Assembly (NCBI GenBank): GCA_964407485.1
Contig: CAYOVQ010000001.1
Span: forward strand, 1 to 37,213
Length of the DNA stretch: 37,213 bases
Direction of reading: 5' to 3'
Source of the DNA: an uncultured Ruminococcus sp.
GTDB taxonomy: Bacteria; Bacillota; Clostridia; Oscillospirales; Acutalibacteraceae
Both the position numbers and the translations under genes were made by a program. This document shows, one piece after another, positions 8,341 to 33,246 of the stretch (positions within the stretch are counted from its first letter, which is position 1; each line of letters begins with the position of its first letter). The notes under the pieces were generated by a model. The model saw only the letters and a program-made list of their open reading frames with translations. It was not told the origin of the DNA and made no database searches.

Positions 8341-9516
8341 TTGTCAAGCATTGGTATTATTGCAGAATTTAACCCCCTGCATACAGGTCATAAACGCATT
8401 ATCGACCACGCGCACACTCTCGCCGATACGGTCGTGTGCGCTATAAGCGGCAACTTTGTACAGCGTGGTGACGTTGCAGTAATAAGCAAGCAACAACGCG
8501 CAAAATTTGCCCTGCTTTGCGGTGCTGACATAGTCGCCGAAATGCCTGTACTGTGGAGTATGTCAACCGCGCAGAATTTCGCTTTGGCAGGTGTTTGGCA
8601 GCTTTACAACCTTGGTTGCGACAAAATCATCTTTGGTAGCGAATGCGGAGATATTGATGCTTTAAAAAATGCCGCAGACGTGATTTACAGCGACGGCTTT
8701 TTTGATCTCGCTACACAAAAGGCGAGATCGGGTATCACCTTTGCCTCCGCGCGTGAACAGGCGGCAAGTGAATTAGGTGTTGATTTTACACTTTTACGCA
8801 ATCCTAACGATAATCTTGGTATTGAATATATATTAGCGGCAAAAAAACTTAATTTGCCGATCGAATTTCACTGTATAAAGCGTTTGGGCGCAGGTCACGA
8901 CAGTCAAGGTATTACCGACGGATATGTGTCGTCATCATATATAAGAGAAGAACTTTTAAAGGGCAATATCGGTTATACCGAACGTTTTATGCCGCGCGAA
9001 ATCAGAGGTATTATAAACCCCGAACACCTTGCCGATATAAAGCGTCTTGAAAATGCAATTCTTTGTGCTATGCGCACCAAAACGGTAGAGGAATTAAAAA
9101 ATCTGCCCGATATAAGCGAAGGACTGGAAAACAAAATTTATTTTTCGGCACGTGTTGCAACAAGTCTTGATGAACTTTATAATATGATAAAAACAAAACG
9201 GTATACACTCGCTCGCATCAGACGGCTTGTGTTGTCGGCATTTTTGAGTGTTGATAACCAGTTTTTTATGACCACCCCACCCTATGTACGCGTATTGGGA
9301 TTTAACGACAAGGGTTTATCACACCTAAAATCGCCGCAGGGCATAATACCCGTTATCACCCGAGCCGCACAAATCAAGGAATTGGATGCCGCCGCGCAAA
9401 AGATTTTTGAAACCGAATGTCGCGCCACCGATATATATAATCTTTCACTAAAAAAGCCGCTTGAATGCGGAACCGAACATAAAATGAAATTGCTTAAAAC
9501 GGAGGAACTGAAATGA
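8341..9516 (+). CDS. tmcAL: tRNA(Met) cytidine acetate ligase (YlbM/UPF0348 nucleotidyltransferase family)
   Basis: TTG start preceded by AGAGGTGA. N-terminus IIAEFNPLHTGHKRII (HxGH nucleotidyltransferase motif); ~390 aa, typical of the family. Confidence 0.8.
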   Translation: MSSIGIIAEFNPLHTGHKRIIDHAHTLADTVVCAISGNFVQRGDVAVISKQQRAKFALLCGADIVAEMPVLWSMSTAQNFALAGVWQLYNLGCDKIIFGSECGDIDALKNAADVIYSDGFFDLATQKARSGITFASAREQAASELGVDFTLLRNPNDNLGIEYILAAKKLNLPIEFHCIKRLGAGHDSQGITDGYVSSSYIREELLKGNIGYTERFMPREIRGIINPEHLADIKRLENAILCAMRTKTVEELKNLPDISEGLENKIYFSARVATSLDELYNMIKTKRYTLARIRRLVLSAFLSVDNQFFMTTPPYVRVLGFNDKGLSHLKSPQGIIPVITRAAQIKELDAAAQKIFETECRATDIYNLSLKKPLECGTEHKMKLLKTEELK

Positions 9517-10442
9517 TTAAAACGGAGATTAAAAATTATCTTAACTATGGCAAGGTGCTATCACTTTCCAACGGAGTTATCGAGGCATACGTTACAGTAG
9601 ATGTGGGTCCGCGTATTATCCGTTTTGGTTACGTTGGCGGTCAGAATTTTATGTGTGATGACCGAAACGCCGCCGCGCCCAAAGATGATGCAGAATATCA
9701 AAGTTATTTCGGCGAGGGCAAAAAATGGGAGATTTTAGGTGGTCACCGCATCTGGACTTCACCCGAAAGTTACCCCGCAAGTTACTACCCCGACCTTGAC
9801 CCCGTAAAATATGAAATCACCCAAAACGGCGCAATTTTTACACCAAACCCCGAAAAAGAAAACGGACAACAAAAACAACTTGAAATAAAAATGGACCCCG
9901 ATGATGCTAATATGTATGTTACAATGAGTGTTACAAATATAGCAAATTCTTCGCAAGAGTTTTCTATATGGGGGCTTACCGTATCGGCGCGTCACGGTGC
10001 GCTTATCATACCTATGAACGACAACGACACAGGACTGCTGCACAACCGCAACATATCCGTCTGGCCCTATACCAACCTTGCCGACAGCCGACTTCACTTT
10101 GGCAAGCGCTACGTAACACTGCGTCAGGATACAAATATTGAGCAAGCATTAAAACTTGGTTTTGACCTTAATAAAGCCGAGGCTTATTACTGTTTAGGTG
10201 ATGAGATTTTCCGCAAAAGTTATGAAACACATCACGAAACAGAAAAATACCCCGACAACAACTGCAGTTTTGAAACCTATACATGTGCAACCTTTATAGA
10301 GGTTGAATCACTTAGCCCTCTTAAAACTGTTCAACCAAACGAAACGGTGTCCCTTACAGAACACTGGTCACTGCACAAAAAGCCCTGTGGCGTAGAGTTT
10401 AACAATGATGACTCAATAGACGAAATGCTTAATAAATTATAA
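9513..10442 (+). CDS. Hypothetical protein, possibly DUF4380 / galactose-mutarotase-like fold
   Basis: 309-aa ORF whose ATG overlaps the tmcAL stop (ATGA). GGHRIWTSPE resembles the conserved DUF4380 motif as I recall it; the family call is tentative. Confidence 0.45.
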   Translation: MIKTEIKNYLNYGKVLSLSNGVIEAYVTVDVGPRIIRFGYVGGQNFMCDDRNAAAPKDDAEYQSYFGEGKKWEILGGHRIWTSPESYPASYYPDLDPVKYEITQNGAIFTPNPEKENGQQKQLEIKMDPDDANMYVTMSVTNIANSSQEFSIWGLTVSARHGALIIPMNDNDTGLLHNRNISVWPYTNLADSRLHFGKRYVTLRQDTNIEQALKLGFDLNKAEAYYCLGDEIFRKSYETHHETEKYPDNNCSFETYTCATFIEVESLSPLKTVQPNETVSLTEHWSLHKKPCGVEFNNDDSIDEMLNKL

Positions 10443-10452
10443 TCGTTATAAA

Positions 10453-10510
10453 AAACGGCGTGCATTAGCGTGATACTCCGTTAAGAGTATCACGCTAATG
10501 CACGCCGTTT
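10453..10510. terminator. Very long perfect hairpin (26-bp stem, 6-nt loop), bidirectional terminator candidate
   Basis: aaacggcgtgcattagcgtgatactc (10453-10478), cgttaa, gagtatcacgctaatgcacgccgttt (10485-10510). An A5 run precedes it and TTT follows. It lies between convergent genes. Confidence 0.7.
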
Positions 10511-10562: not shown

Positions 10563-13500
10563 TTACAGTTCAATATTCCAACCGTTAATGTAACGCATAA
10601 GCAGTGCACAGTCTTTGTTGTTTGTTTTACCGTCAGCATACACATCTGCGGCATCAACTACTATTTCAACATTCCAACCGTTAATGTATTGCATAAGTAA
10701 AACGAAATCTTTATTGTTTATATAACCGTCATCGTTAACATCGCCAACAATATACTCTATTATTTCGACACCGGCATTCACTTTTTCAAACTCTACGTTT
10801 TTTATATCCTCATTAAACACATTTTCGGGATCATAATCGACTGCAATTTGGGTGCTGCTTACAGAAACATCATCCTTAACTCTAAAGGTAATTACTGCTA
10901 CTGTACCATTGGTTTGGTTATTGGGCTTAAGAGAATCTACCCAGTTTATCGAAAACGGATTATTACTTTCAGGTGAATATTCAATATTGGCAAACACACC
11001 TTCTTTGACTGATACAAATTCAATAACATCTGAATCATATTCAATGTCAAATTTGAATGATATTATACCAGGGTTATTATTTATAGCAATAACCACGTCA
11101 AAGGTTTCACCTATTTTAGCAGTACCGCTTGTTACAGTAACAACAGGGGTAGATTCGTCTACAACTTTTTGTGATACTGTAACGGTTAGTGTTGTTGTTG
11201 CATCGGCATAATTTACGGTAACAACCTTTTGACCCACCGTAGCAGAATCTAATTTGCTTGTAGTATAGGTTGTTATTTCACCGCTTTCACCGTCGTTGTA
11301 ATGCGCAATAACAATCATACCCCACTTGTCAAACTCTTCGCCTATATAATACGCTGTTTTGTTGGGCATTTTGTCTATTGTGATTTTTTCAACCGTGCGT
11401 ACTGTATTACACTCGTTACAGAATGTATCGTATATATCATCATAAATGTGACCTGATGTTTCACGCTCAGCACCACACTCATTACAACTGATATCACAGT
11501 TATTATCATATGTATGGGTTACAACAGTTCGTACATAGTCACACACATTACAAATAGTATCGCATTCGTTATCGTATGTATGGGTTATATCACGCAACCT
11601 ACCGCATATATTGCAGGTGGTATCACAACTGTTAAAGTATTTATGACCTGATATCTGTCTTACACCGCCGCAAACGTTGCAGTCTGCATCGCAGCCGTCG
11701 TCATACACATGGTCCGCAACGGTGCGAATTTCTCTACAAATATTGCACTGTGTATCGCAATCGTTGTCATAGGCATGTACAACGATTCTTATAATCCCAC
11801 ACTCGTTACAGGTATCATCACAGGAATTATAATATGTGTGTTCGGGCACTGTGCGCATAAATCCACAAATATTACACTGTGCATCACATCCACTGTCGTA
11901 TTTGTGAGTAATAATTCTTGTAACACCGCACTCATTACAAGAGGTATCACAATTGTTGGTATACGTATGGCTTGCAGGTGTACGGGTAAATCCGCAAATA
12001 TCACATTGTGCATCACAAAGACTGCTATATTTATGATATATGGTACGAATATTGCCACACTCGTTACAAGACGTATCACAATCGCTTGTATAGATATGCT
12101 CCGCAGGAGTGCGAACATCACCGCAAATATTACAATTTGAATCACAGTTATTATTGTATATATGATTTGACGGAACACGCACAAAATCACAAACATTACA
12201 AATAGCATCACAAGCGTTATCATAACTATGGGTTATACTTCTTATAGCCCCACACTCGTTACAGGATACATCGCAATTGTTGTCATATATGTGTGCCGAA
12301 GGGTTTCTGGTATATCCGCAAACATTGCACTGTGTATCACAATTACTGGTATATAAGTGTGTTATTGTTCGTACATAACCGCATTCGTTACAGGATGTAT
12401 CGCAATCGTTTGTATAGATATGGTCTGACGGTGTGCGCAACTCACCACAAACGTTACAAGAATTATCGCAATTGTCGTAATACGTATGGTTGCCCACCTC
12501 ACGTATATCGCCGCAAATATTGCAGGTTTTATCACAATCATTGTTGTATTTATGTTCGGTAGTTCTTGTGTCACCGCATTTATTACATTCGGTATCACAG
12601 GCATTATCGTATATATGCTCTGCAGGCACACGGTTGGTACCGCATATATCACAACTTGCATCGCAGTCGCTTGTATACGTATGTGTTGTAACCCTAACAT
12701 CACCGCACTCATTACAGGACGCATCACATTCGTTAGTGTAGATATGTTCAGACGTTGTGCGTATATCGCCGCAAATGTTACAACTTGCATCACAAGCGTT
12801 ATAATATACGTGGTCGGGCACCTGTCTTGCAGCATCACATTCGTTGCAAGAAGCATCACAGGCATTGTCATAAATATGGTCTGACGGTGTGCGTATATCG
12901 CCGCATACGTTACAATCTGCATCACAGGCGTTGTCATAGGTATGGGTAATTTTTCTTACTGCACCGCATTCGTTACAGGTTGTGTCACAAGTGTTGTCAT
13001 AAATATGGTCGGGCACTTCACGTACCGTGCCGCATATATTGCAAACTGTATCACAATCGTTATCATAAGCACAGTTTACGTCGCGCAAATCACCGCATAT
13101 GTTACAACTTTTATCACAGTCATAACTATAAACGTGGTCAGGCACCTGGCGAACTATGTTGCAATCATTACAAACCGTATCACAAATGTTATAGTATGTG
13201 TGGGGTGCTTGTCTTACCGCGCCACATTCATTGCAGGTATCGTCGCAAACATTATCATAAATGTGCGGAATATCGTTATTTGCTATCAAATCAACAATTT
13301 GCTCTTTAGAAACCTGCTCAATCGATAAGAATTTCGGCACATCGATATTGTTGTAAGATACAATGCTTCTTACACCGCCAACTATCTTTGCATAGGTATT
13401 TGTATCAAGTGCAATATAGTCTATACCCTCTATCTCATTTTCAGACGGTACATAGTCTTCACCGGTAAAAATTTCGGCATCCATTTCATCGGCATATGGC

Positions 13501-15305
13501 CACACAATATATGACAAAACCTCATAACGACCATCGCCCAAATCCTTGTAGCAACTATATTCAAACCGCACAGTCGGTCCTCCCCAGCCGCCTATGTAAC
13601 TACTGTAAATACCGTTATTATAGAAATCCTGTGAATGTAAATCATTTAAAAGTTTATCGGTTTTTTCAAAATATTTAAAGGCTATGTTTTCGTAATCGGC
13701 TTCACTTACAGTAAACTCATATGCATCTTCAGGCGCATACTGCTCAAGTTCACATGAATGAAGCAGATATTCGTTTACAAAAGCCGCGTTCGGACCGCCC
13801 GCTTCTGTAAAAAAGTAGTTATCCCCGTAATACATCCAACCGAGGTTGTCAAATGACTGCTTGAACAGGTTATCATAAATATATACGGGCGCCGCCATTT
13901 CTGCACCGCATTCATTACATACTCTGTCGCAAGCGTTGTCATAAGTATGCTCGGGCACTGTGCGCGTCCATTCGCAAGTATTACAACTGCTGTCACAAAT
14001 ACCGTCATAATCGTGCTCTGACTTACAGATGTTATAATGCCAGGTAGCATTCACGAAATAGGTATTGTAATCGGAAATCGATATATTTTTTTTGTTTGCC
14101 GCTGTACCTGTATACCAAACGTTTTTAAGACCAGTACACTCATCGAAAGCATAGTCGGCTATACTTGTAACACTGTCAGGGATAACAATATCAGTAAGTC
14201 CGCTACAATAAAAAGCATAACTTCCTATAGTCTTAACACTCTCAGGCAAAACTATAGTTTTTAGCCTTATACAGTTAAAAAATGCTCTACCACCTATTGA
14301 CATAACCGTATCGGGTAAATTAACTTTTTCAAGGCGCAAGCAACGTGAAAACACATTGTACGGTACCTCAGTAATACCGTACGGTATTGTTACTTCGGTA
14401 ATATCCGTACCGTAAAAAGCCTGCTGACCAATATACGTAACACCGTCAGGGATGTTTATTTCAGTGATTGAAGTATCATAAAAAGCATAATCACCGATAT
14501 ATGTAACACTATCGGGTACAGTTATACTTGTTATAGATGAACAAGAATAAAAAGCGTTATCGCTTATTCTTTTAAGTCCGTCGCTGATAACAACCGTTTT
14601 TAAACTGCTTGGTACATATTTATACGAGCTACCAAAAATATATGAAAAATCGGTATTAGTATTAGTGATAGCACTTCTCCCTACAAACGGTACGGTGATT
14701 TTTTCAAGATTGTCACAGTCAGCAAGTGCGCCTAGGGCAATTGAAGTAACCGCGTCACCCACAACAAGTTCCGTTAATCTGGTGCAACCTTCAAACATAT
14801 AATCATCAATGCCACACGCTGCATATATCTCGGCTTTTTGAAGCGCACTGCACCCACCAAACAGACCGTAAGACGTGTTTGAAGTAATGCCTGTAACGCT
14901 GCTTGGTATTTTTATACTTGTAAGTTTTATACAATTATAAAAAGCGCCATAGCCTATGGTTGTAACTTGATTTGGCACCGTTATGCTTGTAACGGCATAG
15001 CAACTTGCAAAAGCAAGATTGCCTATCGTTGTGACAGTGTTGGGAATTGTTATAGCGGTTAGTTGCATACAACCACTAAAAGCATTGTCGCCTATTGCCT
15101 TAACGGTATAGCCGCCTAATGTTGACGGAATGGCGATATCGCCACTTACAGATGTGTCAAAATCGGTTATTGTCGCAGCATTTTCTGATACAGTATACGT
15201 ATAATAACCCTCGGTTGCAGCACTGACAGTAAACGTAAATGCACCCAACGGCACCACTGATACAAGAAGAACTATTGCTAATAAAGTTGATAACAATTTT
15301 TTCAT
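10563..15305 (-). CDS. 1580-aa secreted multidomain protein: signal peptide, ~14 BspA-type LRRs, 2 Cys-modules, ~205-aa unknown domain, 29 Cys-modules, Ig-like domain, cohesin, dockerin
   Basis: Single uninterrupted ORF. Signal peptide is MKKLLSTLLAIVLLVSVVPLGAFTFTVSA. RBS AAAGGGG overlaps the stop of the upstream gene. Domain evidence is given in the sub-features. Confidence 0.92.
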   Translation of the reverse strand: MKKLLSTLLAIVLLVSVVPLGAFTFTVSAATEGYYTYTVSENAATITDFDTSVSGDIAIPSTLGGYTVKAIGDNAFSGCMQLTAITIPNTVTTIGNLAFASCYAVTSITVPNQVTTIGYGAFYNCIKLTSIKIPSSVTGITSNTSYGLFGGCSALQKAEIYAACGIDDYMFEGCTRLTELVVGDAVTSIALGALADCDNLEKITVPFVGRSAITNTNTDFSYIFGSSYKYVPSSLKTVVISDGLKRISDNAFYSCSSITSITVPDSVTYIGDYAFYDTSITEINIPDGVTYIGQQAFYGTDITEVTIPYGITEVPYNVFSRCLRLEKVNLPDTVMSIGGRAFFNCIRLKTIVLPESVKTIGSYAFYCSGLTDIVIPDSVTSIADYAFDECTGLKNVWYTGTAANKKNISISDYNTYFVNATWHYNICKSEHDYDGICDSSCNTCEWTRTVPEHTYDNACDRVCNECGAEMAAPVYIYDNLFKQSFDNLGWMYYGDNYFFTEAGGPNAAFVNEYLLHSCELEQYAPEDAYEFTVSEADYENIAFKYFEKTDKLLNDLHSQDFYNNGIYSSYIGGWGGPTVRFEYSCYKDLGDGRYEVLSYIVWPYADEMDAEIFTGEDYVPSENEIEGIDYIALDTNTYAKIVGGVRSIVSYNNIDVPKFLSIEQVSKEQIVDLIANNDIPHIYDNVCDDTCNECGAVRQAPHTYYNICDTVCNDCNIVRQVPDHVYSYDCDKSCNICGDLRDVNCAYDNDCDTVCNICGTVREVPDHIYDNTCDTTCNECGAVRKITHTYDNACDADCNVCGDIRTPSDHIYDNACDASCNECDAARQVPDHVYYNACDASCNICGDIRTTSEHIYTNECDASCNECGDVRVTTHTYTSDCDASCDICGTNRVPAEHIYDNACDTECNKCGDTRTTEHKYNNDCDKTCNICGDIREVGNHTYYDNCDNSCNVCGELRTPSDHIYTNDCDTSCNECGYVRTITHLYTSNCDTQCNVCGYTRNPSAHIYDNNCDVSCNECGAIRSITHSYDNACDAICNVCDFVRVPSNHIYNNNCDSNCNICGDVRTPAEHIYTSDCDTSCNECGNIRTIYHKYSSLCDAQCDICGFTRTPASHTYTNNCDTSCNECGVTRIITHKYDSGCDAQCNICGFMRTVPEHTYYNSCDDTCNECGIIRIVVHAYDNDCDTQCNICREIRTVADHVYDDGCDADCNVCGGVRQISGHKYFNSCDTTCNICGRLRDITHTYDNECDTICNVCDYVRTVVTHTYDNNCDISCNECGAERETSGHIYDDIYDTFCNECNTVRTVEKITIDKMPNKTAYYIGEEFDKWGMIVIAHYNDGESGEITTYTTSKLDSATVGQKVVTVNYADATTTLTVTVSQKVVDESTPVVTVTSGTAKIGETFDVVIAINNNPGIISFKFDIEYDSDVIEFVSVKEGVFANIEYSPESNNPFSINWVDSLKPNNQTNGTVAVITFRVKDDVSVSSTQIAVDYDPENVFNEDIKNVEFEKVNAGVEIIEYIVGDVNDDGYINNKDFVLLMQYINGWNVEIVVDAADVYADGKTNNKDCALLMRYINGWNIEL
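10566..10745 (-). other. Dockerin module (C-terminal 60 aa)
   Basis: Two Ca-binding loop/helix segments: GDVNDDGYINNKDFVLLMQYINGW and ADVYADGKTNNKDCALLMRYINGW. Confidence 0.85.
10746..11155 (-). other. Cohesin-like domain
   Basis: ~135 aa: VTVTSGTAKIGETFDVVIAINNNPGIISFKFDIEYDSDVIEFVSV...NGTVAVITFRVKDD. This is the typical cohesin beta-sandwich sequence pattern, judged by eye. Confidence 0.65.
11156..11386 (-). other. Bacterial Ig-like domain
   Basis: ITIDKMPNKTAYYIGEEFDKWGMIVIAHYNDGESGEIT...GQKVVTVNYADATTTLTVTV resembles the Big-type 'bacterial Ig-like' domains that flank surface-protein modules. Confidence 0.5.
11387..13265 (-). repeat. 29 tandem in-frame 21/22-aa modules H-x-Y-x3-C-D-x2-C-N-x-C-G-x2-R
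   Basis: Hand-parsed from the translation: 11 units of 21 aa and 18 of 22 aa, 627 aa in total. Conservation is H 28/29, Y 29/29, Cys1 28/29, D 29/29, Cys2 29/29, Cys3 29/29, R 29/29. Confidence 0.92.
13887..14018 (-). repeat. Two additional copies of the same Cys module, separated from the main array
   Basis: EHDYDGICDSSCNTCEWTRTVPE + HTYDNACDRVCNECGAEMAAP. Confidence 0.85.
14105..15173 (-). repeat. ~14 BspA-type leucine-rich repeats (LRR_5-like)
   Basis: Recurrent ~23-aa units such as IPNTVTTIGNLAFASCYAVTSIT, VPDSVTYIGDYAFYDTSITEIN and LPESVKTIGSYAFYCSGLTDIV. Confidence 0.8.
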
Positions 15306-15318
15306 TATAACTACCCCT

Positions 15319-15768
15319 TTAAATGATATTTTTATTTATTAAATCAAGCATATATTTTGCCTGTTGTTTGTTCAATTCATCCTGCATTTGTTCTAACTCT
15401 TGATTGCCTTGAAAATCAGAATTTTCTACTTTTAATGCCATTTTTGTAAACCAGTATATTTCATCAGATTTTGCCTGACTTTTAACAAAATCAATCGTTC
15501 CTCGTATGGTATGTGTTGCACACACGCACATATAACAATTCTTAAAATTTGTAAAATCTTCTGCTAAAAATTTTTGACTGTCACCTCTGGTAGTAATGCC
15601 GATTTTTTTGTTTTTATATTCTAATAAATACCAACGGTCCATCTTTTCTTGTCCGACGCGCCCAGTACCTCTAAGTATTGCGCCTTCAAGTAACAATAAC
15701 CCTACTAAACGGGTTATTGTTTTTGTTTTTCCAACCTTTTCTTTACCCTGTAATGCAATTATTTTCAT
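15319..15768 (-). CDS. Small (149-aa) P-loop NTPase of unknown family
   Basis: ATG at 15768 is preceded by AGAGGG. Walker A is GKEKVGKT in MKIIALQGKEKVGKTKTI. No clear hhhhD Walker B is visible. The stop overlaps the RBS of the 1580-aa gene, whose ATG is 13 nt downstream. Confidence 0.7.
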   Translation of the reverse strand: MKIIALQGKEKVGKTKTITRLVGLLLLEGAILRGTGRVGQEKMDRWYLLEYKNKKIGITTRGDSQKFLAEDFTNFKNCYMCVCATHTIRGTIDFVKSQAKSDEIYWFTKMALKVENSDFQGNQELEQMQDELNKQQAKYMLDLINKNII

Positions 15769-15800
15769 TTTAACCCTCTGTTTTAAAATAAATTCTCTTA

Positions 15801-15877
15801 TTTTGTTGAACACCATTCACCAAAATTAGTGCAATTATAGCATAAAATTAAAAAAAAGTAAATAGTATTCAACAAAA
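15801..15877. promoter_or_regulatory. Pair of 10-bp perfect inverted repeats flanking the divergent promoter (candidate operator pair)
   Basis: TTTTGTTGAA (15801-15810) and TTCAACAAAA (15868-15877) are exact reverse complements. They bracket the promoter at 15834..15862. Confidence 0.35.
15834..15862 (-). promoter_or_regulatory. Sigma-A-type promoter for the P-loop / giant-protein operon
   Basis: Minus strand: TTTACT (15862-15857), 17 nt, TATAAT (15839-15834), with extended -10 TGc. Confidence 0.4.
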
Positions 15878-15893: not shown

Positions 15894-16151
15894 ATGTTTA
15901 AAATCAAAGCCGCTGATGGCACCAACAACCTTTGCGGACGGCGGATTGCCGAAATACGCAAGGGTAAAAAACTTTCTCAACGAAAGTTGGCAACCAGAAT
16001 GCAACTGCTGGGGTTTGATGTAGACCATTACTTTATCCGTCGGGTCGAAAACGGTGAGAGGTTTGTGACCGACATTGATTTGGTAATTTTTGCGCGCGCA
16101 CTTGATGTACCTATTACGGAAATGCTATCAGCGGAGGATGCGAAGCTTTAA
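15894..16151 (+). CDS. XRE-family helix-turn-helix transcriptional regulator (85 aa)
   Basis: RIAEIRKGKKLSQRKLATRMQL...IRRVENGER is a classic HTH_3 pattern. RBS GAGGGA lies 7 nt upstream of the ATG. Confidence 0.85.
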   Translation: MFKIKAADGTNNLCGRRIAEIRKGKKLSQRKLATRMQLLGFDVDHYFIRRVENGERFVTDIDLVIFARALDVPITEMLSAEDAKL

Positions 16152-16709: not shown

Positions 16710-17735
16710 ATGAAAAAATGTCCGTTTTGTAAAGCTGATATAGAGGACAACGCCCGCTTTTGCCTTTACTGTATGTCCTCTTTGCAGGAAAAACAAAAGA
16801 TAGAAAACCAACAAAAAGATAACAAAAGGTGGCTGTATATACTTGCCGCCTTTTTATTGCTTGTGTTTGCTTTTGCTATAACAATATTTGCTTTAAGCAA
16901 AAATGGGGCGAATAACAATTCAAGCGAAAACTCTATGTATAGCGAAACATTACCCCTAAACAACTCGTCATATACAAGCGATATTTTATCAAGCAATAAC
17001 ACAAGTGATGACGTAAGTAAAAACACTTCAACTGATAATTCGTCACAAGATAAAACTCCACACAATAGTAGTAGTGATAAAACAAATCCCGACGATAACA
17101 GCGATACAACTACCACCACAAGCCATTCGCAAAGCAGTACTATCAGCAGTTCATCAAGCGATACAACCACATCAACTGTGTCACCCTCACAGCCAAGTGA
17201 AAGCGACAATACCCAAACTTCAGAAGAACAAAACAGCAGTCAAGAAACCATTATGCCAGTCGAGGCGGTTTATATCTACCGTGATGCTGTTGCCGCCGAT
17301 TGCTACACCGCGGGTAATATTCCCGCGCAACCAATTGAAGATGTTATTGTTATCACGGGTGTGTCTTGTGCGGCAAGTGACGGAATATACAATATACCCG
17401 AAGAAATTGACGGAAAAAGGGTTGGAGCAATTATGCCATCCGCCTTTTCCGATACTGCTATCAGCAGCACCGTCAAAAAGGTTGTAGTACCATCAACGGT
17501 AAAAACTATTTGGCAAAACGCTTTTTCTAACTGTTACAACTTGACCGATATTTATTTGTGCGGTGCAACTATAAATATCTTTGAATCAGCATTTGCTGAT
17601 GTGTCAAATCGCACAGGAACGTTAACCATACATTGCGCTCGTGACTGTAAAACCTTTGCCTTTTACTATTACAGAAATATAGTCGGTAATTATGATGCTC
17701 TATACCAAGAATGGAACGGCGGCGAGATTGAATGA
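16710..17735 (+). CDS. Membrane protein: N-terminal zinc ribbon, one TM helix, Ser/Thr/Asn-rich linker, C-terminal BspA-type LRR domain
   Basis: Zinc ribbon is CPFC-x10-CLYC and the TM helix is WLYILAAFLLLVFAFAITIFAL. A low-complexity S/T/N/D stretch spans ~aa 66-180. LRR units include IPEEIDGKRVGAIMPSAFSDTAISSTVKKVV and VPSTVKTIWQNAFSNCYNLTDIY. Confidence 0.8.
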   Translation: MKKCPFCKADIEDNARFCLYCMSSLQEKQKIENQQKDNKRWLYILAAFLLLVFAFAITIFALSKNGANNNSSENSMYSETLPLNNSSYTSDILSSNNTSDDVSKNTSTDNSSQDKTPHNSSSDKTNPDDNSDTTTTTSHSQSSTISSSSSDTTTSTVSPSQPSESDNTQTSEEQNSSQETIMPVEAVYIYRDAVAADCYTAGNIPAQPIEDVIVITGVSCAASDGIYNIPEEIDGKRVGAIMPSAFSDTAISSTVKKVVVPSTVKTIWQNAFSNCYNLTDIYLCGATINIFESAFADVSNRTGTLTIHCARDCKTFAFYYYRNIVGNYDALYQEWNGGEIE

Positions 17736-18448
17736 GTTATTTAAACACAACCCGCGAACAATACATAGAAAAACTGTTTGAAACCTATCGATTGGTATGT
17801 GTACTTGCCGACAAAAATGACTGCAAAGTCTTGCGTTTAAGACACAAACAATTAAATAAAGATTTGGTGCTGCGCAGTTTCCCAAAAGTTGTTGCGGCAT
17901 ACGAAATACTATGCAATATACGATCAAAAAATCTGCCCGAAATATATGATTCTATAACCCTCGATGACGGACAAATAGTTTTAGAAGAGTTTATTAGCGG
18001 TATGACGGTTGACGATGTTATGAAAGGCGGTAACTACCGATACCGTGGAGCAAAGCGGGTGCTGACATCGGTTTGTAACGCGCTGGACATCCTGCACAAA
18101 AACAACATAGTTCATCGTGATATTAAACCCGAAAATATAATAATTTCAGATGACAGCAGGGTTGTTTTAATTGACCTTAACATATCGCGTCAGATGTCCT
18201 ACAGCAAAAAAGACACCGTTATAATGGGCACGGTAGGTTATGCCTCACCCGAACAGTTGGGTGTTGCGGGTAGTGATACGCGAACAGACATTTATGCTAT
18301 GGGTGTGCTGCTTAACGTGATGCTTACAGGCAAGCACCCAAGTGAAACGTTAGCGCGCGGAAGGTCAGGCAAAATTGTTAAAAAATGCACTGATATAAGC
18401 CCAGACAACCGCTATCAGACAGCCGAAAAATTAGCTGAAGCATTATAA
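17732..18448 (+). CDS. Hanks-type Ser/Thr protein kinase catalytic domain only (238 aa), atypical N-lobe
   Basis: ATGA overlap with the upstream gene. HRDIKPEN (aa 128-135), DLN in place of DFG (148-150), GTVGYASPE (166-174). No TM or sensor domain. Confidence 0.85.
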   Translation: MSYLNTTREQYIEKLFETYRLVCVLADKNDCKVLRLRHKQLNKDLVLRSFPKVVAAYEILCNIRSKNLPEIYDSITLDDGQIVLEEFISGMTVDDVMKGGNYRYRGAKRVLTSVCNALDILHKNNIVHRDIKPENIIISDDSRVVLIDLNISRQMSYSKKDTVIMGTVGYASPEQLGVAGSDTRTDIYAMGVLLNVMLTGKHPSETLARGRSGKIVKKCTDISPDNRYQTAEKLAEAL

Positions 18449-19477: not shown

Positions 19478-20014
19478 TTACGTTCCTCCTGAAATGTATA
19501 CTCGTTTTGATGTTATATTTAAAGCCGCAGTGACGGCATTTTTTATTTTTTCGGCAGTAAGTTCATAGTCACCGCCTGCGCAGATAATCGCGACGCCGCG
19601 TACTTCGGGCATAATCTCGGTAATAACAAGCGCCTGCTCACCGCCGTCGGCATTTTTGACCGTTATGTAAGACTGTTTTTTGCTCTCACTGCTTTGGTCG
19701 TTTGTCTCGCCTGCAGAACTTGACGTGTCGGTCTCGGCGGCGCTGGCGTAAGAATAGCGTATGCCGCTTTCAAGCGTTATTACAACAGTGGGATTTTTGT
19801 CCCCCGTGATGCTTGTTACTATATCTTTTATATCCTCTTCAAGAAGTTCACAGTACTGCTCTGCCGTATACGTAACGCCGCTTGACGCGTTTTTTTGCGT
19901 CTCGTCACCGTCGCCTGAAAAAAGCGATGATATAAAAATCAGCAGTATACCGCCGATGCCTAAAATGATTAACATTTTTGGATTTTTTGTAAGATTTTTT
20001 ATTTTTTCATTCAT
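19478..20014 (-). CDS. spoIIIAG: Stage III sporulation protein AG
   Basis: N-terminal TM and C-terminal ITEIMPEVRGVAIICAGGD...ITSKRVYI, matching the conserved PEVRGV block of SpoIIIAG. Operon position agrees. Confidence 0.82.
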   Translation of the reverse strand: MNEKIKNLTKNPKMLIILGIGGILLIFISSLFSGDGDETQKNASSGVTYTAEQYCELLEEDIKDIVTSITGDKNPTVVITLESGIRYSYASAAETDTSSSAGETNDQSSESKKQSYITVKNADGGEQALVITEIMPEVRGVAIICAGGDYELTAEKIKNAVTAALNITSKRVYISGGT

Positions 20015-20432
20015 TTATTACATCTACCTCATAACTGTCTGAACCTATTACCGCGTCTATTTTTTGTTGAGACTCGCTTGTGTAAACAGTTACCTTACTT
20101 ATAACTATGCTGCCGTCGTTTAATTTATTAGTGTCTACTATAATTTTTGTAAAATTTATCCCCTCTTGATAAAGCGCCTCGGCAAAAATTGATTGAGCCG
20201 TGACCGCTGTGTTTTGCTCGGTAAGGATTTCGGTAGTATCTGCGCTTTCAAAATAAGAAAAATCGGGTTTTGGCAATGCCACTACGGTACCTATAACACA
20301 ACAAACAAAACACAGGCAAAAAACATATTTCACACTCTGGCTCATACTGCCCGACGGACACAGCATATATAAAAAACCCAGCAGTATACAACTGACGCAA
20401 AAACTGATTATAAAGGAAGAAATATTATTCAT
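20007..20432 (-). CDS. spoIIIAF: Stage III sporulation protein AF
   Basis: 141 aa with two N-terminal TM helices. Position between AE and AG, with overlapping stop/start on both sides. Confidence 0.72.
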   Translation of the reverse strand: MNNISSFIISFCVSCILLGFLYMLCPSGSMSQSVKYVFCLCFVCCVIGTVVALPKPDFSYFESADTTEILTEQNTAVTAQSIFAEALYQEGINFTKIIVDTNKLNDGSIVISKVTVYTSESQQKIDAVIGSDSYEVDVINE

Positions 20433-21529
20433 TTTGTTGACATCACAACCACCGACAGCGCAATTATAAACATACCGCCCACCATTAAAACCACACCCAA
20501 AAGCAGTGACAGCATTGAATCTATCGCGCGCAAAACCCCCGTTATTTTAGAAAGTGAAAAAAGTTCACCCAAAGAGATATTAAGAAGCAACATACACCGC
20601 CATAAAACAAGGTCTATAATAATTGGAAGCAGTGTCACCGCCAATGCCGCAACACCGTATATGCCCACAGAAGATTTAAGCAGCCCCATAGACGTTGAAA
20701 TAGTGGATACCGCTTCGCTTAACACCCCACCTGCCACAGGCACAGAAGTACCTATTATAAATTTTGCAGTGCGCAGTGTAACACTGTCTGCCGCAGAGTT
20801 AACCGCTGTCTGAATGCCTAAAACACCTATAAACAACGTGCCTAAAAGCGACATTATCCACATAGAAATCTTTTTAACGCTTTCTACAATGCCTGAACTG
20901 TTAAGCAGAGGAGACACACCCGAACTGATGCTCAATGCCAGATATCCACCCATAAGCGGCAACACCGCAAAAGACGACACAAACGATACTACCTCTGTAG
21001 CGGCAAGCAACAGCGCGCTCATAGCAGGCGCTGTAACCGTTTTGCCCGAAAGTGCCAATGTTACACTAAAAACAGGCACAAAACTTAACATAAAAGTACT
21101 GCAACCCTTAACCGCATTTACGGCGGCAGATACGCTTTGCCACACATTTGTTGCCGCTACGGCGCTGATTGAAAGCACGGCGGCATAAATTGCCGTTTCA
21201 AATCGGGGTGCCGCACCAAATGCGGTAATAGCCGCCGACACAAAAATAATGCCCGCCACGGCAATACCCGCTACAACAGGTGTTTTAACTCCTCCCGTTA
21301 CAAACTGCCACAAATGTCGCAGTACATTGCCGTTTGTAAGACGGTTCACCCATGTGCTATCGGTTATGTCGATTCCGTTTTCTTCAAAAAAATCGCGAAC
21401 ATCACTGTCAAGGCTATCGTCAAGCGAGTCGGCGCCCACATTTTTAATTTGCGTGGCATAGTTATCCTCGGCGCAAACGGGCAAAGAAAAGATAAAAATT
21501 AATATAACAAATGCGATTATTTTTTTCAT
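20429..21529 (-). CDS. spoIIIAE: Stage III sporulation protein AE (polytopic membrane protein)
   Basis: 366 aa with a signal-like N-terminus followed by multiple TM helices. Operon position agrees. Confidence 0.85.
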   Translation of the reverse strand: MKKIIAFVILIFIFSLPVCAEDNYATQIKNVGADSLDDSLDSDVRDFFEENGIDITDSTWVNRLTNGNVLRHLWQFVTGGVKTPVVAGIAVAGIIFVSAAITAFGAAPRFETAIYAAVLSISAVAATNVWQSVSAAVNAVKGCSTFMLSFVPVFSVTLALSGKTVTAPAMSALLLAATEVVSFVSSFAVLPLMGGYLALSISSGVSPLLNSSGIVESVKKISMWIMSLLGTLFIGVLGIQTAVNSAADSVTLRTAKFIIGTSVPVAGGVLSEAVSTISTSMGLLKSSVGIYGVAALAVTLLPIIIDLVLWRCMLLLNISLGELFSLSKITGVLRAIDSMLSLLLGVVLMVGGMFIIALSVVVMSTK

Positions 21530-21921
21530 AGTCCTACAAAGCCTATTGCCGCTTCTATCACGGTTGTAAGCAGCGGAATGCTTAAAATAAAAATTACTCC
21601 TTTGCCTGCAATTTCGGCTCCTTGCGCTAAAGCGCTTAATCCAAAATCGCGACAGACATCAGCGGCAAAACCCGTTATGTAGGCAATGCCGAGCGCTTTT
21701 AACGCGGTGGTAAAATACACACCAACATTTCCGCTTTGGTCGTATAATTCCTTTAATTTTACAATGCCGCCCAAAAGGTTGCTTGATGTTGTCATAAGCG
21801 TTACGCAAACCGCGGCTATAACAAGTAAAAAAGAGTACTCCTGCAAATGCGGTCTTAACACTATGGCAAATACCGCAGCAATAATTATAAGTACAATTAT
21901 TTTTATAAGGTCGCCGCTCAC
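21526..21921 (-). CDS. spoIIIAD: Stage III sporulation protein AD
   Basis: 131-aa membrane protein. Size, hydrophobicity pattern and position fit SpoIIIAD. Confidence 0.85.
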   Translation of the reverse strand: MSGDLIKIIVLIIIAAVFAIVLRPHLQEYSFLLVIAAVCVTLMTTSSNLLGGIVKLKELYDQSGNVGVYFTTALKALGIAYITGFAADVCRDFGLSALAQGAEIAGKGVIFILSIPLLTTVIEAAIGFVGL

Positions 21922-22112
21922 AGCCCAAACAATCCTTTTACTGTGCTGAACAAATCAGCAATCGCGCCCACTACCATAAGCAACACCACCACAAGACCCG
22001 ACAGTGTTACAAGCATTGCCTGCTCTTCACGACCTGAACGTACAAGCAGTTGATGAAGCACCGTTACAATAATGCCTATAGCGGCTATTTTAAAAATAAA
22101 ATCTACGTCCAT
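21918..22112 (-). CDS. spoIIIAC: Stage III sporulation protein AC
   Basis: 64 aa. FKIAAIGIIVTVLHQLL...LFSTVKGLF closely parallels B. subtilis SpoIIIAC as I recall it. Confidence 0.88.
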   Translation of the reverse strand: MDVDFIFKIAAIGIIVTVLHQLLVRSGREEQAMLVTLSGLVVVLLMVVGAIADLFSTVKGLFGL

Positions 22113-22122
22113 ATCTTTACCT

Positions 22123-22599
22123 CTAAATCAGTAATACACCCAAGGCGAGTCCTATACAAACACCAAAGGTTTTAAACAATTTGCTTTTTTGAACAGCATC
22201 ACATTCGGCATCATTTAACCGTTTTTTTATGCTGTGACTAAAAGAAATTATGCGGTCACACTCGGCTTTTTTTGCTGATTTTCCTAAAGAAGACAGAAAA
22301 TCGTTAATAACCGCTTTATCATCAAAGGTTAAATCACTGTCTTTGCAAAGCGCTTTCCCCTTTTCGACTGTTATAAAATCACATTTGCAAAAGGAGTTTT
22401 TTATTGCCGTATCAAGTTCGCATCCACCCTGCTCTATATGCACATACAAAGTATCTAATCCGTCACAAAAAGCAGACATTTTTTTGCATCTTGCATTAAG
22501 TGAAAAACTCTTTAAAAATCCCCACATGCTGCATACCGCAACAAGTAAAATTATGCCTGTTATTTTAACTGTAAACACTGCTTGTAAACTCCCTTGCAT
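22123..22599 (-). CDS. spoIIIAB: Stage III sporulation protein AB
   Basis: ~158 aa with TM helices at both ends. Start is ambiguous: ATG 22599, or GTG 22578 which follows AGGGAG. It overlaps the spoIIIAA 3' end. Confidence 0.78.
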   Translation of the reverse strand: MQGSLQAVFTVKITGIILLVAVCSMWGFLKSFSLNARCKKMSAFCDGLDTLYVHIEQGGCELDTAIKNSFCKCDFITVEKGKALCKDSDLTFDDKAVINDFLSSLGKSAKKAECDRIISFSHSIKKRLNDAECDAVQKSKLFKTFGVCIGLALGVLLI

Positions 22600-23482
22600 C
22601 AAAAATCTGAGACGGCTCGCCTAATCTTTGTGACAGTAGCGCCACTTTTGAAATCGCGCCGCTTTTTACAATGTTTTTGGTAACATCGCGCCGCATTATA
22701 TCGCGCGCATCACGGCAATGAGCGGTCGTTATAACCGACACTCCCGCGTTAAAACACTGTGTCACACTGTTTAGTTCGTCTACGGTGCCGATTTCATCAA
22801 AAGCAATAAAATGCGGAAACATTGTACGAAGTGCAATGCCAGTACCCAAAGCCTTATCGCGCGTATATAAAACGTCGGTATTAATGCCTAAATCAAGCGA
22901 TTTTGAGCCACCCGAAATTTCACCTCGGCTATCTATTACGGCAACGCGACAATAAGCACCGTTTTCACCGTTTGAAAGCAATCGTACCAAATCACGCAAA
23001 ACAGTTGTTTTGCCACTGCCGGGCGGACCTGCAATAAGCAAACCGTTACCAGCGTGTGAAAGCAGAGGTCGCGCGCAGTCAAAAATCTGACGGGCAATTC
23101 TTATGTTTATTGAGGTTACAGACGTCATCATTCCGTCGGCGTTAAAGACACCGCATACCCCTGCGCGACATCCGCGGGCAAGTGACACAAACCCTTGCTT
23201 TATTTCGCTTTCGTGCAGATATACCGAATTATTGCAAAGCAGTGACAGTGTGTGTTGCAATTCGTCCTCTGATGCTATAAGAGTGTTTTGTGAAAATGTG
23301 TCTGTGACACTGCTGTCTTCACACACAAACATAACCTTGCCGCAAGCGGTAAGACACACGGGCAAATTCTGCCGCAATCGTATTTCTTCGCACTTTTCCT
23401 TTACTCCATCGGGAATAAAAGCAAGCGTTCTTTGTATTCTGTCTGCAATCTGCAAAACTGCATTATCAAATTCTGTGTTCAT
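22565..23482 (-). CDS. spoIIIAA: Stage III sporulation protein AA (ATPase)
   Basis: Walker A is GPPGSGKTT and Walker B is IAFDEIG. It is the first gene of an eight-gene co-oriented, overlapping cluster. Confidence 0.9.
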   Translation of the reverse strand: MNTEFDNAVLQIADRIQRTLAFIPDGVKEKCEEIRLRQNLPVCLTACGKVMFVCEDSSVTDTFSQNTLIASEDELQHTLSLLCNNSVYLHESEIKQGFVSLARGCRAGVCGVFNADGMMTSVTSINIRIARQIFDCARPLLSHAGNGLLIAGPPGSGKTTVLRDLVRLLSNGENGAYCRVAVIDSRGEISGGSKSLDLGINTDVLYTRDKALGTGIALRTMFPHFIAFDEIGTVDELNSVTQCFNAGVSVITTAHCRDARDIMRRDVTKNIVKSGAISKVALLSQRLGEPSQIFDAREFTSSVYS

Positions 23483-30798: not shown

Positions 30799-31818
30799 AT
30801 GTTTACAAGAGATATTGGCGTTGACCTTGGCACTGCTAATACATTGGTATGTGTAAAAGGCAAAGGAATTATAATGCGCGAGCCATCTGTTGTGGCTTAT
30901 GATGTACGAAACGATGCCGTGCGCGCGGTTGGTCGCGAGGCTAAAGAAATGATAGGCAGAACCCCAGGTTCCATTGTAGCCGTGCGCCCACTTAAAGACG
31001 GCGTTATTGCCGACTTTGACGTAACCGCCGCTATGCTTAAAAGATTTGTAAGTGTGGCGCTTAAAGGCTCGTTCTTTTCGCGCGTTCGTATGGTAATCTG
31101 CATACCCACCGGTGTAACCGAGGTTGAAAGCCGCGCTGTTTACGATGCCGCAAAGCAAGCAGGCGCATATGACATTGACCTTGTTGAAGAACCTATGGCA
31201 GCGGCGGTAGGCGCAGGACTTCCAGTTCAGGAAGCCACAGGTAATATGATAGTTGATATCGGAGGCGGTACAAGTGAAATTGCCGTTATTTCATTAGGCG
31301 ATATTGTTACCGCACAATCACTGCGCATTGCAGGTGATGACCTTGATGAAGCAATCATTAACTATATGCGTAAAAAGCACAATCTGCTTATAGGTGAACG
31401 CACTGCTGAACAGATTAAAATAGATATTGGCTCTGCAAAAGAGTATGAAGGTGAAACATCTATAGAAATCAAGGGTCGAAATGTTGTTGACGGTCTGCCA
31501 AAGAACGTTACCATAACTTCTGCCGAAGTGCGTGACGCCATGGTTGATCCTATCTCACAGATAATTGATGCAATACGTTCAACACTTGAAAAAACACCTC
31601 CCGAACTTTCTGCCGATATTATAGACAGCGGTATAACCCTTACGGGCGGCACCGCGTTACTTCGCGGACTTGCCGAACTTATAGCAGAAGAGACAGGCAT
31701 GCCTGTAAGCGTTGCCGCAAATCCCCTCGACTGCGTTGTTTTGGGCGCGGCAAAGCGTCTTGAAGACGACAGCGGATTCCAGAACTATGTATTCCGCAGA
31801 GGAAAAAGATTTAGATAA
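30799..31818 (+). CDS. mreB: Rod shape-determining protein MreB
   Basis: DIGVDLGTANTLV, EEPMAAAVGAG and DIGGGTSEIAVISLG motifs. Confidence 0.96.
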   Translation: MFTRDIGVDLGTANTLVCVKGKGIIMREPSVVAYDVRNDAVRAVGREAKEMIGRTPGSIVAVRPLKDGVIADFDVTAAMLKRFVSVALKGSFFSRVRMVICIPTGVTEVESRAVYDAAKQAGAYDIDLVEEPMAAAVGAGLPVQEATGNMIVDIGGGTSEIAVISLGDIVTAQSLRIAGDDLDEAIINYMRKKHNLLIGERTAEQIKIDIGSAKEYEGETSIEIKGRNVVDGLPKNVTITSAEVRDAMVDPISQIIDAIRSTLEKTPPELSADIIDSGITLTGGTALLRGLAELIAEETGMPVSVAANPLDCVVLGAAKRLEDDSGFQNYVFRRGKRFR

Positions 31819-31835
31819 ATTAAGGAGAAATAAAA

Positions 31836-32696: not shown

Positions 32697-32700
32697 GCCT

Positions 32701-33213: not shown

Positions 33214-33246
33214 TTTTAAATATCTTTAAAAGCGAGGTGACTTTAA

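Follow-up and report, generated by a model that had tools for sequence, protein, structure and literature searches.

A tandem Cys- and His-rich repeat of secreted clostridial proteins as a candidate stalk module held by metal sites shared between neighbouring units

Gram-positive fibrillar adhesins, whose stalks are of the Ig-like, Rib or SasG G5-E type, combine a signal peptide, a head, a stalk of repeats in variable number and an anchor (PMC9210967). Known fibrillar stalks are assembled from beta-sandwiches of 70-100 amino acids (aa) that rely on a hydrophobic core, on isopeptide bonds or on Ca2+. The text of the survey makes no mention of zinc or metal, and cysteine appears only in the title of one of its references (PMC9210967). 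A second comparable group is formed by the non-enzymatic dockerin proteins of cellulosomes of the Ruminococcus flavefaciens type, including those with leucine-rich repeats (LRRs), which carry a signal peptide, an LRR region and a dockerin (PMC2930009). The same study lists transglutaminase-like domains, neighbouring serpins and cohesin, all of them partners seen in the repeat family presented here, and it files the intervening regions as 'unknown' without describing a Cys-rich repeat. Cys is normally avoided in proteins exported by Firmicutes, and in anaerobic Firmicutes such proteins show no bias toward the even Cys numbers associated with disulfides (PMC2823432). Here, we analyze a stretch of 37,213 nucleotides (nt) from an uncultured Ruminococcus sp. 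(contig CAYOVQ010000001.1 of assembly GCA_964407485.1), hereafter called the window. It encodes a secreted protein of 1580 aa, the middle of which is a long tandem array of a small Cys- and His-rich unit.

From its N-terminus onward, this protein consists of a signal peptide, an LRR_5 domain, a mini-array of two units, an insert, a main array of 29 units, a Big_3 domain, a cohesin and a dockerin. The architecture is that of a fibrillar adhesin, with the LRR_5 domain as head, 29 + 2 repeats, and cohesin plus dockerin as a non-covalent anchor. The stalk belongs to none of the known stalk families, since the repeat has no Pfam match and a single Big_3 domain follows the array; in contrast with the large beta-sandwiches of known stalks, the unit measures 21-22 aa and is rich in Cys. 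The Dockerin_1 and Cohesin matches both exceed their Pfam gathering scores, which identifies the protein as a cohesin-dockerin component of the cellulosome type. It thereby resembles the LRR-dockerin proteins of R. flavefaciens, from which it differs in bearing a cohesin of its own.

The main array is made of 29 consecutive units, 28 of which contain the full C-x3-C-x2-C motif (Cys1, Cys2 and Cys3 in what follows), the last one having Tyr for Cys1. Nine positions are conserved among these units: His in 28, Tyr in 29, Cys1 in 28, Asp in 29, Cys2 in 29, Asn in 27, Cys3 in 29, Gly in 23 and Arg in 29, the sole residue other than His at the His position being Cys745. The protein contains 30 C-x3-C-x2-C motifs, as compared with a mean of 0.5 and a maximum of 4 in 2000 shuffles of its sequence. 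When all six frames were read with the unit pattern [HC]x[YFW]x4[DNE]xxCxxC, the 31 matches fell without exception into one frame of the minus strand and the other five frames had none. This parsing agrees with the original prediction, made from the letters of the window and their translations, which had counted 29 in-frame units plus two more at 13887..14018 and had noted the near-invariance of His, Tyr, Asp, the three Cys and Arg (28-29 of 29 each); its coordinates for the array, 11387..13265, were off by 1-3 nt. Open reading frames (ORFs) of 83-191 aa overlap the array in other frames on both strands (11709..13328; for instance 11709..12140 on the plus and 12362..12937 on the minus strand). 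The unit motif is absent from every one of them, and they are taken to be by-products of a repetitive, stop-poor composition rather than genes.

At the DNA level, the copies have diverged strongly. The 57-nt unit cores share 60% identity on average and 79% at most, the longest exactly repeated word is 20 nt, and the third positions of codons for the same amino acid are 52% identical between copies; synonymous sites are saturated. The Arg codons of the array come from both families (10 AGA/AGG, 19 CGN), and Tandem Repeats Finder detected no unit-length DNA repeat over the array, only a 23-nt row of period 9 at 12180..12202. Such divergence indicates that the array is old and has been kept by selection on the protein, as had been supposed from the start. 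The alternation of 21-mers and 22-mers, proposed at the same time as a super-period of ~43 aa, has fared less well. The two periods do mostly alternate in the window protein, NEC going with 21-mers in 8 of 11 units and N[IV]C with 22-mers in 14 of 18. Across the family, however, where period 22 was counted 1028 times and period 21 530 times, transitions from 22 to 22 dominate. Within the array of the window, similarity between DNA copies is barely higher at lag 2 (0.62) than at lag 1 (0.595). The super-period is thus a weak and local feature.

The composition of the 627-aa array suggests how so small a unit might be held together. It counts 87 Cys, 78 Asp and 65 Asn against no Trp, one Met, five Leu and five Phe; with almost no residues able to form a core, a unit of 21 aa cannot have a hydrophobic interior and needs cross-links. 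We consider it probable that these cross-links are metal sites, presumably of Zn, each built by two neighbours. The nearly coreless modules would each be held by a tetrahedral Cys3His site that acquires Zn2+ after export through the Sec pathway. For metal i+1, unit i would supply its Cys1, and unit i+1 would contribute His, Cys2 and Cys3 (the CxxCG knuckle). With two consecutive units stapled by each metal, the array would form one interlocked, open-ended, thin and semi-rigid rod instead of beads on a string. Applied to the window protein, this arrangement would give ~30 complete sites. The mini-array would have two of them, with Cys427 capping the first, and the main array 28, including one Cys4 site at unit 6, where Cys stands in for His. 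A further site, belonging to unit 1 of the main array, would have three ligands. Such a rod would keep the N-terminal BspA-type LRR binding head apart from the C-terminal Big_3, cohesin and dockerin domains, and the cohesin/dockerin end would dock the protein into a cohesin-dockerin assembly at the cell surface.

The proposed division of ligands comes from a statistical comparison of 2057 units belonging to 331 arrays in 197 proteins. Units were located with an anchor pattern that requires the aromatic residue, Asp, Cys2, Cys3 and Arg and leaves His and Cys1 free to vary. Internal units keep His in 99.6% and Cys1 in 95.6% of cases. The ends of the arrays behave differently. Cys1 is missing from 29.6% of last units as compared with 4.4% of internal ones. 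When the last canonical unit retains a Cys1-type ligand, it is followed in 231 of 242 cases by His (or Cys) at the position expected for a next unit and by a CxxC within 40 aa; this continuation is a variant unit missed by the anchor pattern. When that ligand is absent, 76 of 84 arrays genuinely end (Fisher 2e-52). Last units lose Cys1 only and keep His, Cys2 and Cys3, the anchor itself requiring the latter two, and these three residues therefore do not depend on a following unit.

The opposite end shows a complementary pattern. Units were considered truly first when no CxxC occurred in the 45 aa upstream (n=112). A Cys stands at most 6 aa before their His in 42% of cases, and a Cys or a His in 58%, as against ~1-3% of internal units. 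The favoured place is two residues before the His (H-2), with Cys in 23% and His in 11%, and the unit's own His position is preserved (99% His or Cys). Internal units devoid of Cys1 (n=78) tell a similar story: 34 of them are followed by an extra Cys or His two or three residues before the next His, at H-2 in 30 (16 His, 14 Cys) and at H-3 in four (all His), while in 36 the Cys is shifted by one residue, in four Cys1 has become His and in four nothing replaces it. An extra ligand precedes the next unit in only 8 of 1648 cases when Cys1 is present (Fisher 5e-42). The 34 compensated cases are 34 different sequences from 20 proteins in 17 unrelated groups. Taken together, the end effects, the N-terminal caps, the compensation and the pattern of last units point to a site that joins Cys1 of one unit to His, Cys2 and Cys3 of the next. 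A different partition, with Cys1, Cys2 and Cys3 of unit i and the His of unit i+1, was considered and rejected: it would orphan the first His and leave the last unit siteless, and what is seen is that first units keep their His and gain a cap nearby and that last units lose nothing but Cys1.

The window protein conforms to the rule for array ends, its last unit having exchanged Cys1 for Tyr with Big_3 directly after it. At the other end, Cys427 is proposed as the capping ligand of the first mini-array site. The motif A-[TI]-W-[HY]-Y-[ND]-x-C precedes the first unit in this protein (14025..14048, minus strand) and in homologues P0025, P0079, P0090 and P0097, placing a Cys 4-6 residues before the first His, and has the appearance of a dedicated head-to-stalk junction. 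Variant units prolong many arrays, among them those of P0195, P0061, P0118, P0151, P0027, P0153 and others; a hairpin-like insertion of 15-25 aa separates their His-x-Tyr from CxxC and they are without Cys1, as in ITHTYKTVTTKATLTKNGKTVKQCSVCGK. They may be C-terminal cap modules of the chain. Proteins of the P0021 type carry yet another variant, C-D-x2-C-N-x3-C-x3-R.

Most tandem zinc fingers are self-contained, and the array could likewise be read as independent knuckles on short linkers, each binding a metal with its own His, Cys1, Cys2 and Cys3. The contiguity of H-x5-C-x3-C-x2-C and the ~96-100% conservation of all four residues speak for such beads, and a compensating residue, lying in the linker after its own unit, could fold back onto its own site. 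We nevertheless judge this unlikely. It leaves unexplained why the loss of Cys1 is tied to the absence of a following His and CxxC (76/84 against 11/242) and why an extra Cys or His stands 2-6 residues before the His of first units, which possess a Cys1 of their own (42-58% against 1-3%); moreover, it is from the next His (H-2/H-3), not from the preceding Cys3, that the compensating residue keeps a constant distance. Of the four-ligand metal site initially attributed to each unit, metal ligation has found support, but the four ligands most likely do not lie within a single unit.

Structure prediction was carried out on units 7-12 with AlphaFold2 and an alignment of 77 segments, each six units long, that were drawn from the window protein and homologues. 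The best model reached a mean predicted local distance difference test (pLDDT) score of 93.8 (87.5-93.8 over five models) and a predicted template modelling score of 0.60. It contains neither helices nor sheets; instead, each unit has a single isolated beta-bridge, linking the residues that directly precede Cys2 and Arg, and in this model the bridge flanking CxxC shows CxxC-knuckle geometry. If the alignment is left out, the repeat is not predicted, which indicates that the confidence stems from covariation in the family, and a single-sequence prediction of aa 425-722 was unusable (pLDDT 35.6). A Foldseek search of the model against PDB returned nothing significant (best E=0.58, template modelling (TM) score at most 0.19), the weak and uniformly non-significant neighbours being zinc ribbon, RanBP2/NZF, LIM, PHD, RING and IBR modules. 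One marginal match was obtained in BFVD, to a phage 'NOA36 protein' (E=3e-4, TM 0.19), and was judged to be generic Zn-knuckle similarity.

The repeat proved to be widespread. A search of a word-indexed collection of 5.8 billion proteins with the array region retrieved 1827 proteins at E<1e-5, and a six-unit profile detected 2466 clusters at 50% identity among 1.84 billion representatives, 570 of them below 1e-30. The longest proteins bearing the repeat reach 6716 aa. Labelled members belong to metagenome-assembled genomes of Clostridia, Ruminococcaceae and Lachnospiraceae and are called 'hypothetical' or named after another domain. In the precomputed Pfam annotation of the homologues, the repeat occurs together with LRR_5, dockerin, cohesin, SLH, SH3_3, M23, NlpC/P60, amidase_3, CHAP, transglutaminase core, fn3, Big and carbohydrate-binding module (CBM) domains, and none of the annotated domains covers the repeat itself. 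Whole-protein scans of Pfam and NCBIfam at E<=1 matched the flanking domains only; matches to DUF7535 (16.4 bits for a cut-off of 27) and to Gam were dismissed as noise. Neither the 627-aa array nor a 77-sequence profile matched any PDB sequence at E<=10, and a tblastn search with six units found nothing in phage and plasmid collections. An exact look-up of the 1580-aa product in the protein collection returned no entry. A whole-protein search of GTDB representative genomes returned two LRR relatives only. Literature searches yielded no description of the repeat, and none stands in the text of PMC9210967 or PMC2930009. That no described domain family could be named for the module has thus been borne out by sequence, profile and structure comparison in the libraries searched, the profile search having revealed a widespread family without bringing a match to a characterized domain in Pfam, NCBIfam or PDB. 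The role of spacer or stalk that had been suggested for it is plausible, being in keeping with the order of domains and with the variety of extracellular domains beside which the repeat occurs.

The repeat itself could instead be primarily functional, either storing or scavenging metal at the surface (a zinc sponge) or binding a ligand of host, plant or microbial origin. Some 30 metal sites per molecule would represent a large capacity; arrays range from 3 to at least 36 units and some members, such as P0021, consist of little else. Pneumococcal histidine-triad proteins, which hold Zn, offer an analogy; Strep_his_triad has no Pfam match in the protein and its HxxHxH motif is absent from the units. 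This idea seems improbable to us. Cys3His sites bind Zn very tightly and would make a poor exchangeable store. A mean identity of 56% between units, with poor conservation at the non-ligand positions, speaks against a specific binding surface. The partners, furthermore, are many unrelated enzymatic or binding heads and wall anchors, as is the case for stalk modules. Variable repeat number, diverse partners and the lack of a conserved neighbouring gene fit a stalk module for general use that has no maturation system of its own.

Metal ligation must also be weighed against covalent cross-linking, in which disulfides between units, or enzymatic thioethers as in SCIFF and ranthipeptides, would stabilize the stalk and His would be structural only. 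Cys-rich repeats of the EGF, TNFR and laminin type are stabilized by disulfides in eukaryotes, and Cys followed by Asp or Asn recalls the acceptor context of thioethers. The substitutions observed in the family argue otherwise. The 17 family units without His at the His position have Cys in 12, the remaining five having Asn, Thr or Gln, and Cys1 is replaced by His or by a Cys shifted by one residue, with His elsewhere also acting as a functional substitute; the N-cap Cys is interchangeable with His as well. In a metal site His can stand in for Cys, but it can form neither a disulfide nor a thioether. An odd number of Cys, three per unit, combined with Cys-His exchanges in both directions thus speaks for metal ligation, and these ligand-preserving substitutions with their position-specific compensation are those expected of a structural Zn(Cys3His) site. 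The preference of the original prediction for metal over disulfides is upheld by the exchanges at the His and Cys1 positions and by the near absence of core-forming residues. The host, moreover, is a spore-forming bacterium of Clostridia/Ruminococcaceae type, as judged from a spoIIIA-type operon in the window and from an MreB that shares 95% identity with proteins of metagenome-assembled genomes labelled 'Clostridia bacterium' and 'Ruminococcaceae bacterium'; anaerobic Firmicutes show no disulfide-type Cys bias (PMC2823432). No maturase, Dsb or radical SAM (S-adenosylmethionine) gene was found in the 37-kb window, and the gene neighbourhoods of two homologues have nothing in common and contain no radical SAM or Dsb gene. 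SCIFF and ranthipeptides arise from short leader-peptide precursors encoded beside a radical SAM maturase; the protein considered here is a 1580-aa Sec substrate. Covalent cross-links therefore appear very unlikely.

As to the metal, proteins that use the Sec pathway are exported unfolded and cannot carry a cluster pre-assembled in the cytoplasm. The signal peptide is of the Sec type, and no twin-arginine motif was found in its translation; a cofactor would have to be acquired outside, which favours Zn2+ over Fe-S clusters, and we infer that Zn2+ is most likely the bound ion. The C-x3-C-x2-C spacing, shared with radical SAM clusters, had been pointed out at the start, with the remark that nothing else resembled that fold. 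A [4Fe-4S] link finds no support. The Radical SAM core PF04055, a cytoplasmic partial TIM barrel of ~200 aa or more with one motif per domain, has no match at E<=1, the 30 motifs follow one another every 21-22 aa and the signal is of the Sec type. That Fe in rubredoxin-like Fe(Cys)3His sites, or Fe-S sites, would pass electrons along the stalk outside the cell with the help of the invariant Tyr adjoining every site is barely credible: a set of three Cys and one His does ligate some [2Fe-2S] clusters (CDGSH/mitoNEET family) and the host is anaerobic, but there is no similarity to any Fe-S family in Pfam, NCBIfam, PDB profile or Foldseek searches, no cofactor assembled in the cytoplasm could be carried out by a Sec rather than Tat substrate, no cytochrome, flavin or other electron-transfer gene lies nearby and the repeat is partnered by adhesin, wall-hydrolase and cellulosome domains. 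Nothing supports the redox chain put forward initially, and a 'wire' in which the ~30 Cys3His sites and their Tyr bind Fe or Cu picked up outside, running along a Gram-positive stalk, has very little chance of being correct; if it were, it would provide a non-haem, non-flavin route of extracellular electron transfer from a 21-aa repeat.

Several considerations weigh against a rod of shared metal sites, even though we prefer it. The geometry between units is deduced from the statistics of sequences; degenerate units can escape a regular expression that defines array ends by Tyr, Asp, Cys2, Cys3 and Arg, and all these statistics count sequences, not independent evolutionary events, although the compensation is seen in 17 unrelated protein groups. 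No fourth ligand is obvious in around 40% of truly first units, among them that of the main array in the window protein, where Asp stands at H-3. In the mini-array, Cys459, the Cys1 of unit 2, is kept even though no canonical unit follows. The abundance of conserved Asp and Asn means that Ca2+ could also contribute. We infer the rigidity of the rod, its exact geometry and its function as a spacer, and likewise its length. Finally, a name for the repeat may exist in other InterPro member databases or in AlphaFold DB.

The features of the window that bear on this protein and its surroundings are collected in Table 1. The 1580-aa gene looks genuine: AGGGG, a plausible ribosome-binding site, lies 8-10 nt 5' of its ATG, the terminator-like hairpin separates it from the convergent 309-aa ORF, and Pfam domains flank the array in the same frame on either side. 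The terminator scan gave seven matches, with 0.3 expected from shuffles. NCBIfam matches of the head to LRR adhesin models are partial and under their cut-offs. The second unit of the mini-array has Met instead of Arg and is followed by the degenerate start VYIYDN. The insert between the two arrays is rich in aromatic and acidic residues and has no homologue in the word-indexed collection or among 230 family members; it holds the pair H516-x-C518 and C585, which might complete metal sites with flanking units. The internal duplication of the dockerin corresponds to a 96-bp tandem repeat (1.8 copies, 76% match, 10569..10742) reported by Tandem Repeats Finder.

Table 1. Coordinates of the 1580-aa protein gene, its parts and neighbouring genes in the window
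Feature	Position	Strand	Basis or remark
Gene of LRR/repeat-stalk/Big_3/cohesin/dockerin secreted protein	10563..15305	-	1580 aa; ORF list
Intrinsic-terminator-like hairpin, bidirectional	10458..10505	.	Perfect 20-bp inverted repeat, T-runs on both strands
Sec-type signal peptide, aa 1-29	15219..15305	-	Read from translation; putative cleavage between MKKLLSTLLAIVLLVSVVPLGAFTFTVSA and A
BspA-type leucine-rich repeat head, ~aa 45-415	14061..15173	-	Pfam LRR_5, E=1.9e-87, 4 stretches; approximate boundaries
Cys427 in ATWHYNIC-KSE-H, end of LRR domain	14025..14027	-	WHYNxC...H context recurs in homologues
Two-unit mini-array, aa 430-473	13887..14018	-	Unit-pattern parsing
206-aa insert between both arrays, aa 474-679	13269..13886	-	No Pfam match
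Main array, 29 units of 21/22 aa, aa 680-1306	11388..13268	-	Consensus x-H-x-Y-x3-C-D-x2-C-N-x-C-G-x2-R-x2-3
Cys745 replacing His of unit 6 (NCAYDNDC)	13071..13073	-	Ligand-preserving substitution
Tyr1292 replacing Cys1 of last unit (HIYDDIYDTFCNEC), array end	11430..11432	-	Unit parsing
Big_3 (bacterial Ig-like, group 3), aa 1314-1377	11175..11366	-	Pfam E=4.2e-08, above gathering score
Cohesin, aa 1389-1487	10845..11141	-	Pfam E=5.2e-10, 40.1 bits, cut-off 24.1
Type I dockerin, aa 1521-1574	10584..10745	-	Pfam Dockerin_1 E=2.1e-11, 44.3 bits, cut-off 22.9
165-aa ORF with Walker-A-like GKEKVGKT	15319..15816	-	No Pfam match; ends 13 nt upstream of 1580-aa gene
XRE-type helix-turn-helix regulator	15894..16151		Between LRR_5/kinase pair and 1580-aa gene
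Second, smaller BspA-type LRR_5 protein	16710..17735	+	Weak N-terminal double-zinc-ribbon match; overlaps kinase gene by 4 nt
Ser/Thr protein kinase, 238 aa	17732..18448	+	Pair with LRR_5 gene, together 16710..18448
HIGH-nucleotidyltransferase gene	8341..9516		
309-aa ORF	9513..10442	+	No Pfam match; 4-nt overlap, translationally coupled to nucleotidyltransferase gene
spoIIIA-type sporulation operon	19478..23482	-	AA, AC/AD, AE, AF matches
mreB-mreC-mreD-PBP2-minD	30799..35232	+	

The 165-aa ORF is probably co-transcribed with the 1580-aa gene. The window also carries polA, acetate kinase, tsaD and dus genes, and the presence of both the spoIIIA-type operon and the mreB-mreC-mreD-PBP2-minD cluster identifies the contig as chromosomal DNA of a rod-shaped spore-former. 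Among the homologues, the gene of P0095 lies between two genes for cellulases of glycoside hydrolase family 5, one of them with a CBM3, and that of P0052 directly follows two serpin genes. Both neighbourhoods echo the cellulosome-associated repertoire of R. flavefaciens.

If metal sites are shared between units as proposed, a large family unnamed in the searched libraries, with at least 2466 clusters at 50% identity and proteins of up to 6716 aa, would follow a new construction principle for bacterial stalks, in which modules of 21-22 aa are stapled by shared Cys3His sites. This would explain how thin and stiff extracellular rods can exist in strictly anaerobic Firmicutes that avoid exported Cys and have no disulfide system (PMC2823432). 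Whether neighbour-shared metal sites are indeed a previously undescribed way for disulfide-avoiding anaerobic Firmicutes to build rigid extracellular rods is, in our estimate, about evenly balanced. The surface architecture of gut and rumen Clostridia, be it of cellulosome type, based on wall hydrolases or SLH-anchored, may then depend on the supply of zinc, in which case zinc sequestration by the host or dietary zinc could affect it. The reach of adhesive heads might scale with the number of repeats, and the minimal repeat is possibly a designable rigid spacer. On a practical level, thousands of proteins now called 'hypothetical' would each gain annotation over hundreds of residues from a profile of the repeat.

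The small structural zinc modules are the nearest relatives in kind. Zinc knuckles and ribbons, RanBP2/NZF and the DnaJ CxxCxGxG motif resemble the repeat, as modelled, in placing CxxCG on a tight turn beside a beta-bridge; knuckles and ribbons are likewise tiny and coreless, their Cys3His ligand set is the same and Cys2-x2-Cys3-Gly has the form of a classical zinc knuckle. Unlike these modules, the repeat is extracellular and can be strung into 36 or more units; it possesses Tyr, Asp, Asn and Arg as further invariant residues, would take its fourth ligand from the previous repeat and finds no significant match in Pfam, PDB or Foldseek. In particular, there is no match to zf-CCHC PF00098, whose C-x2-C-x4-H-x4-C spacing differs from the H-x5-C-x3-C-x2-C found here, nor to the DnaJ cysteine-rich domain PF00684, in which four CxxCxGxG repeats build two interleaved Zn sites, the motif of the repeat analyzed here being CNxCGxxR with an additional His and Cys1. 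The RING, PHD, FYVE and DnaJ cysteine-rich domains share with the proposed array the principle that ligands consecutive in sequence serve different metals and thereby tie parts of the chain together. They are closed, two-metal, intracellular domains, whereas the array would interleave its sites in an open-ended manner, and the family differs from cross-braced domains by its N-terminal caps (extra Cys or His at H-2) and by the loss of Cys1 at the C-terminal end. Radical SAM enzymes have the same Cys spacing, but in the secreted protein the motif recurs every 21-22 aa, and the site would be completed by His and an inter-unit Cys instead of SAM. Like the EGF, TNFR and laminin EGF modules of eukaryotes, to which they have no sequence or fold relationship, the units are small, coreless and cross-linked, and would form rods that space extracellular binding domains; the cross-link proposed here is a metal, which would suit an anaerobic Firmicute without oxidative folding. 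We therefore rate the repeat not as a categorically new system but as a large domain family, unnamed in the searched libraries, that varies two known classes, the structural zinc modules and the stalk repeats of surface proteins.

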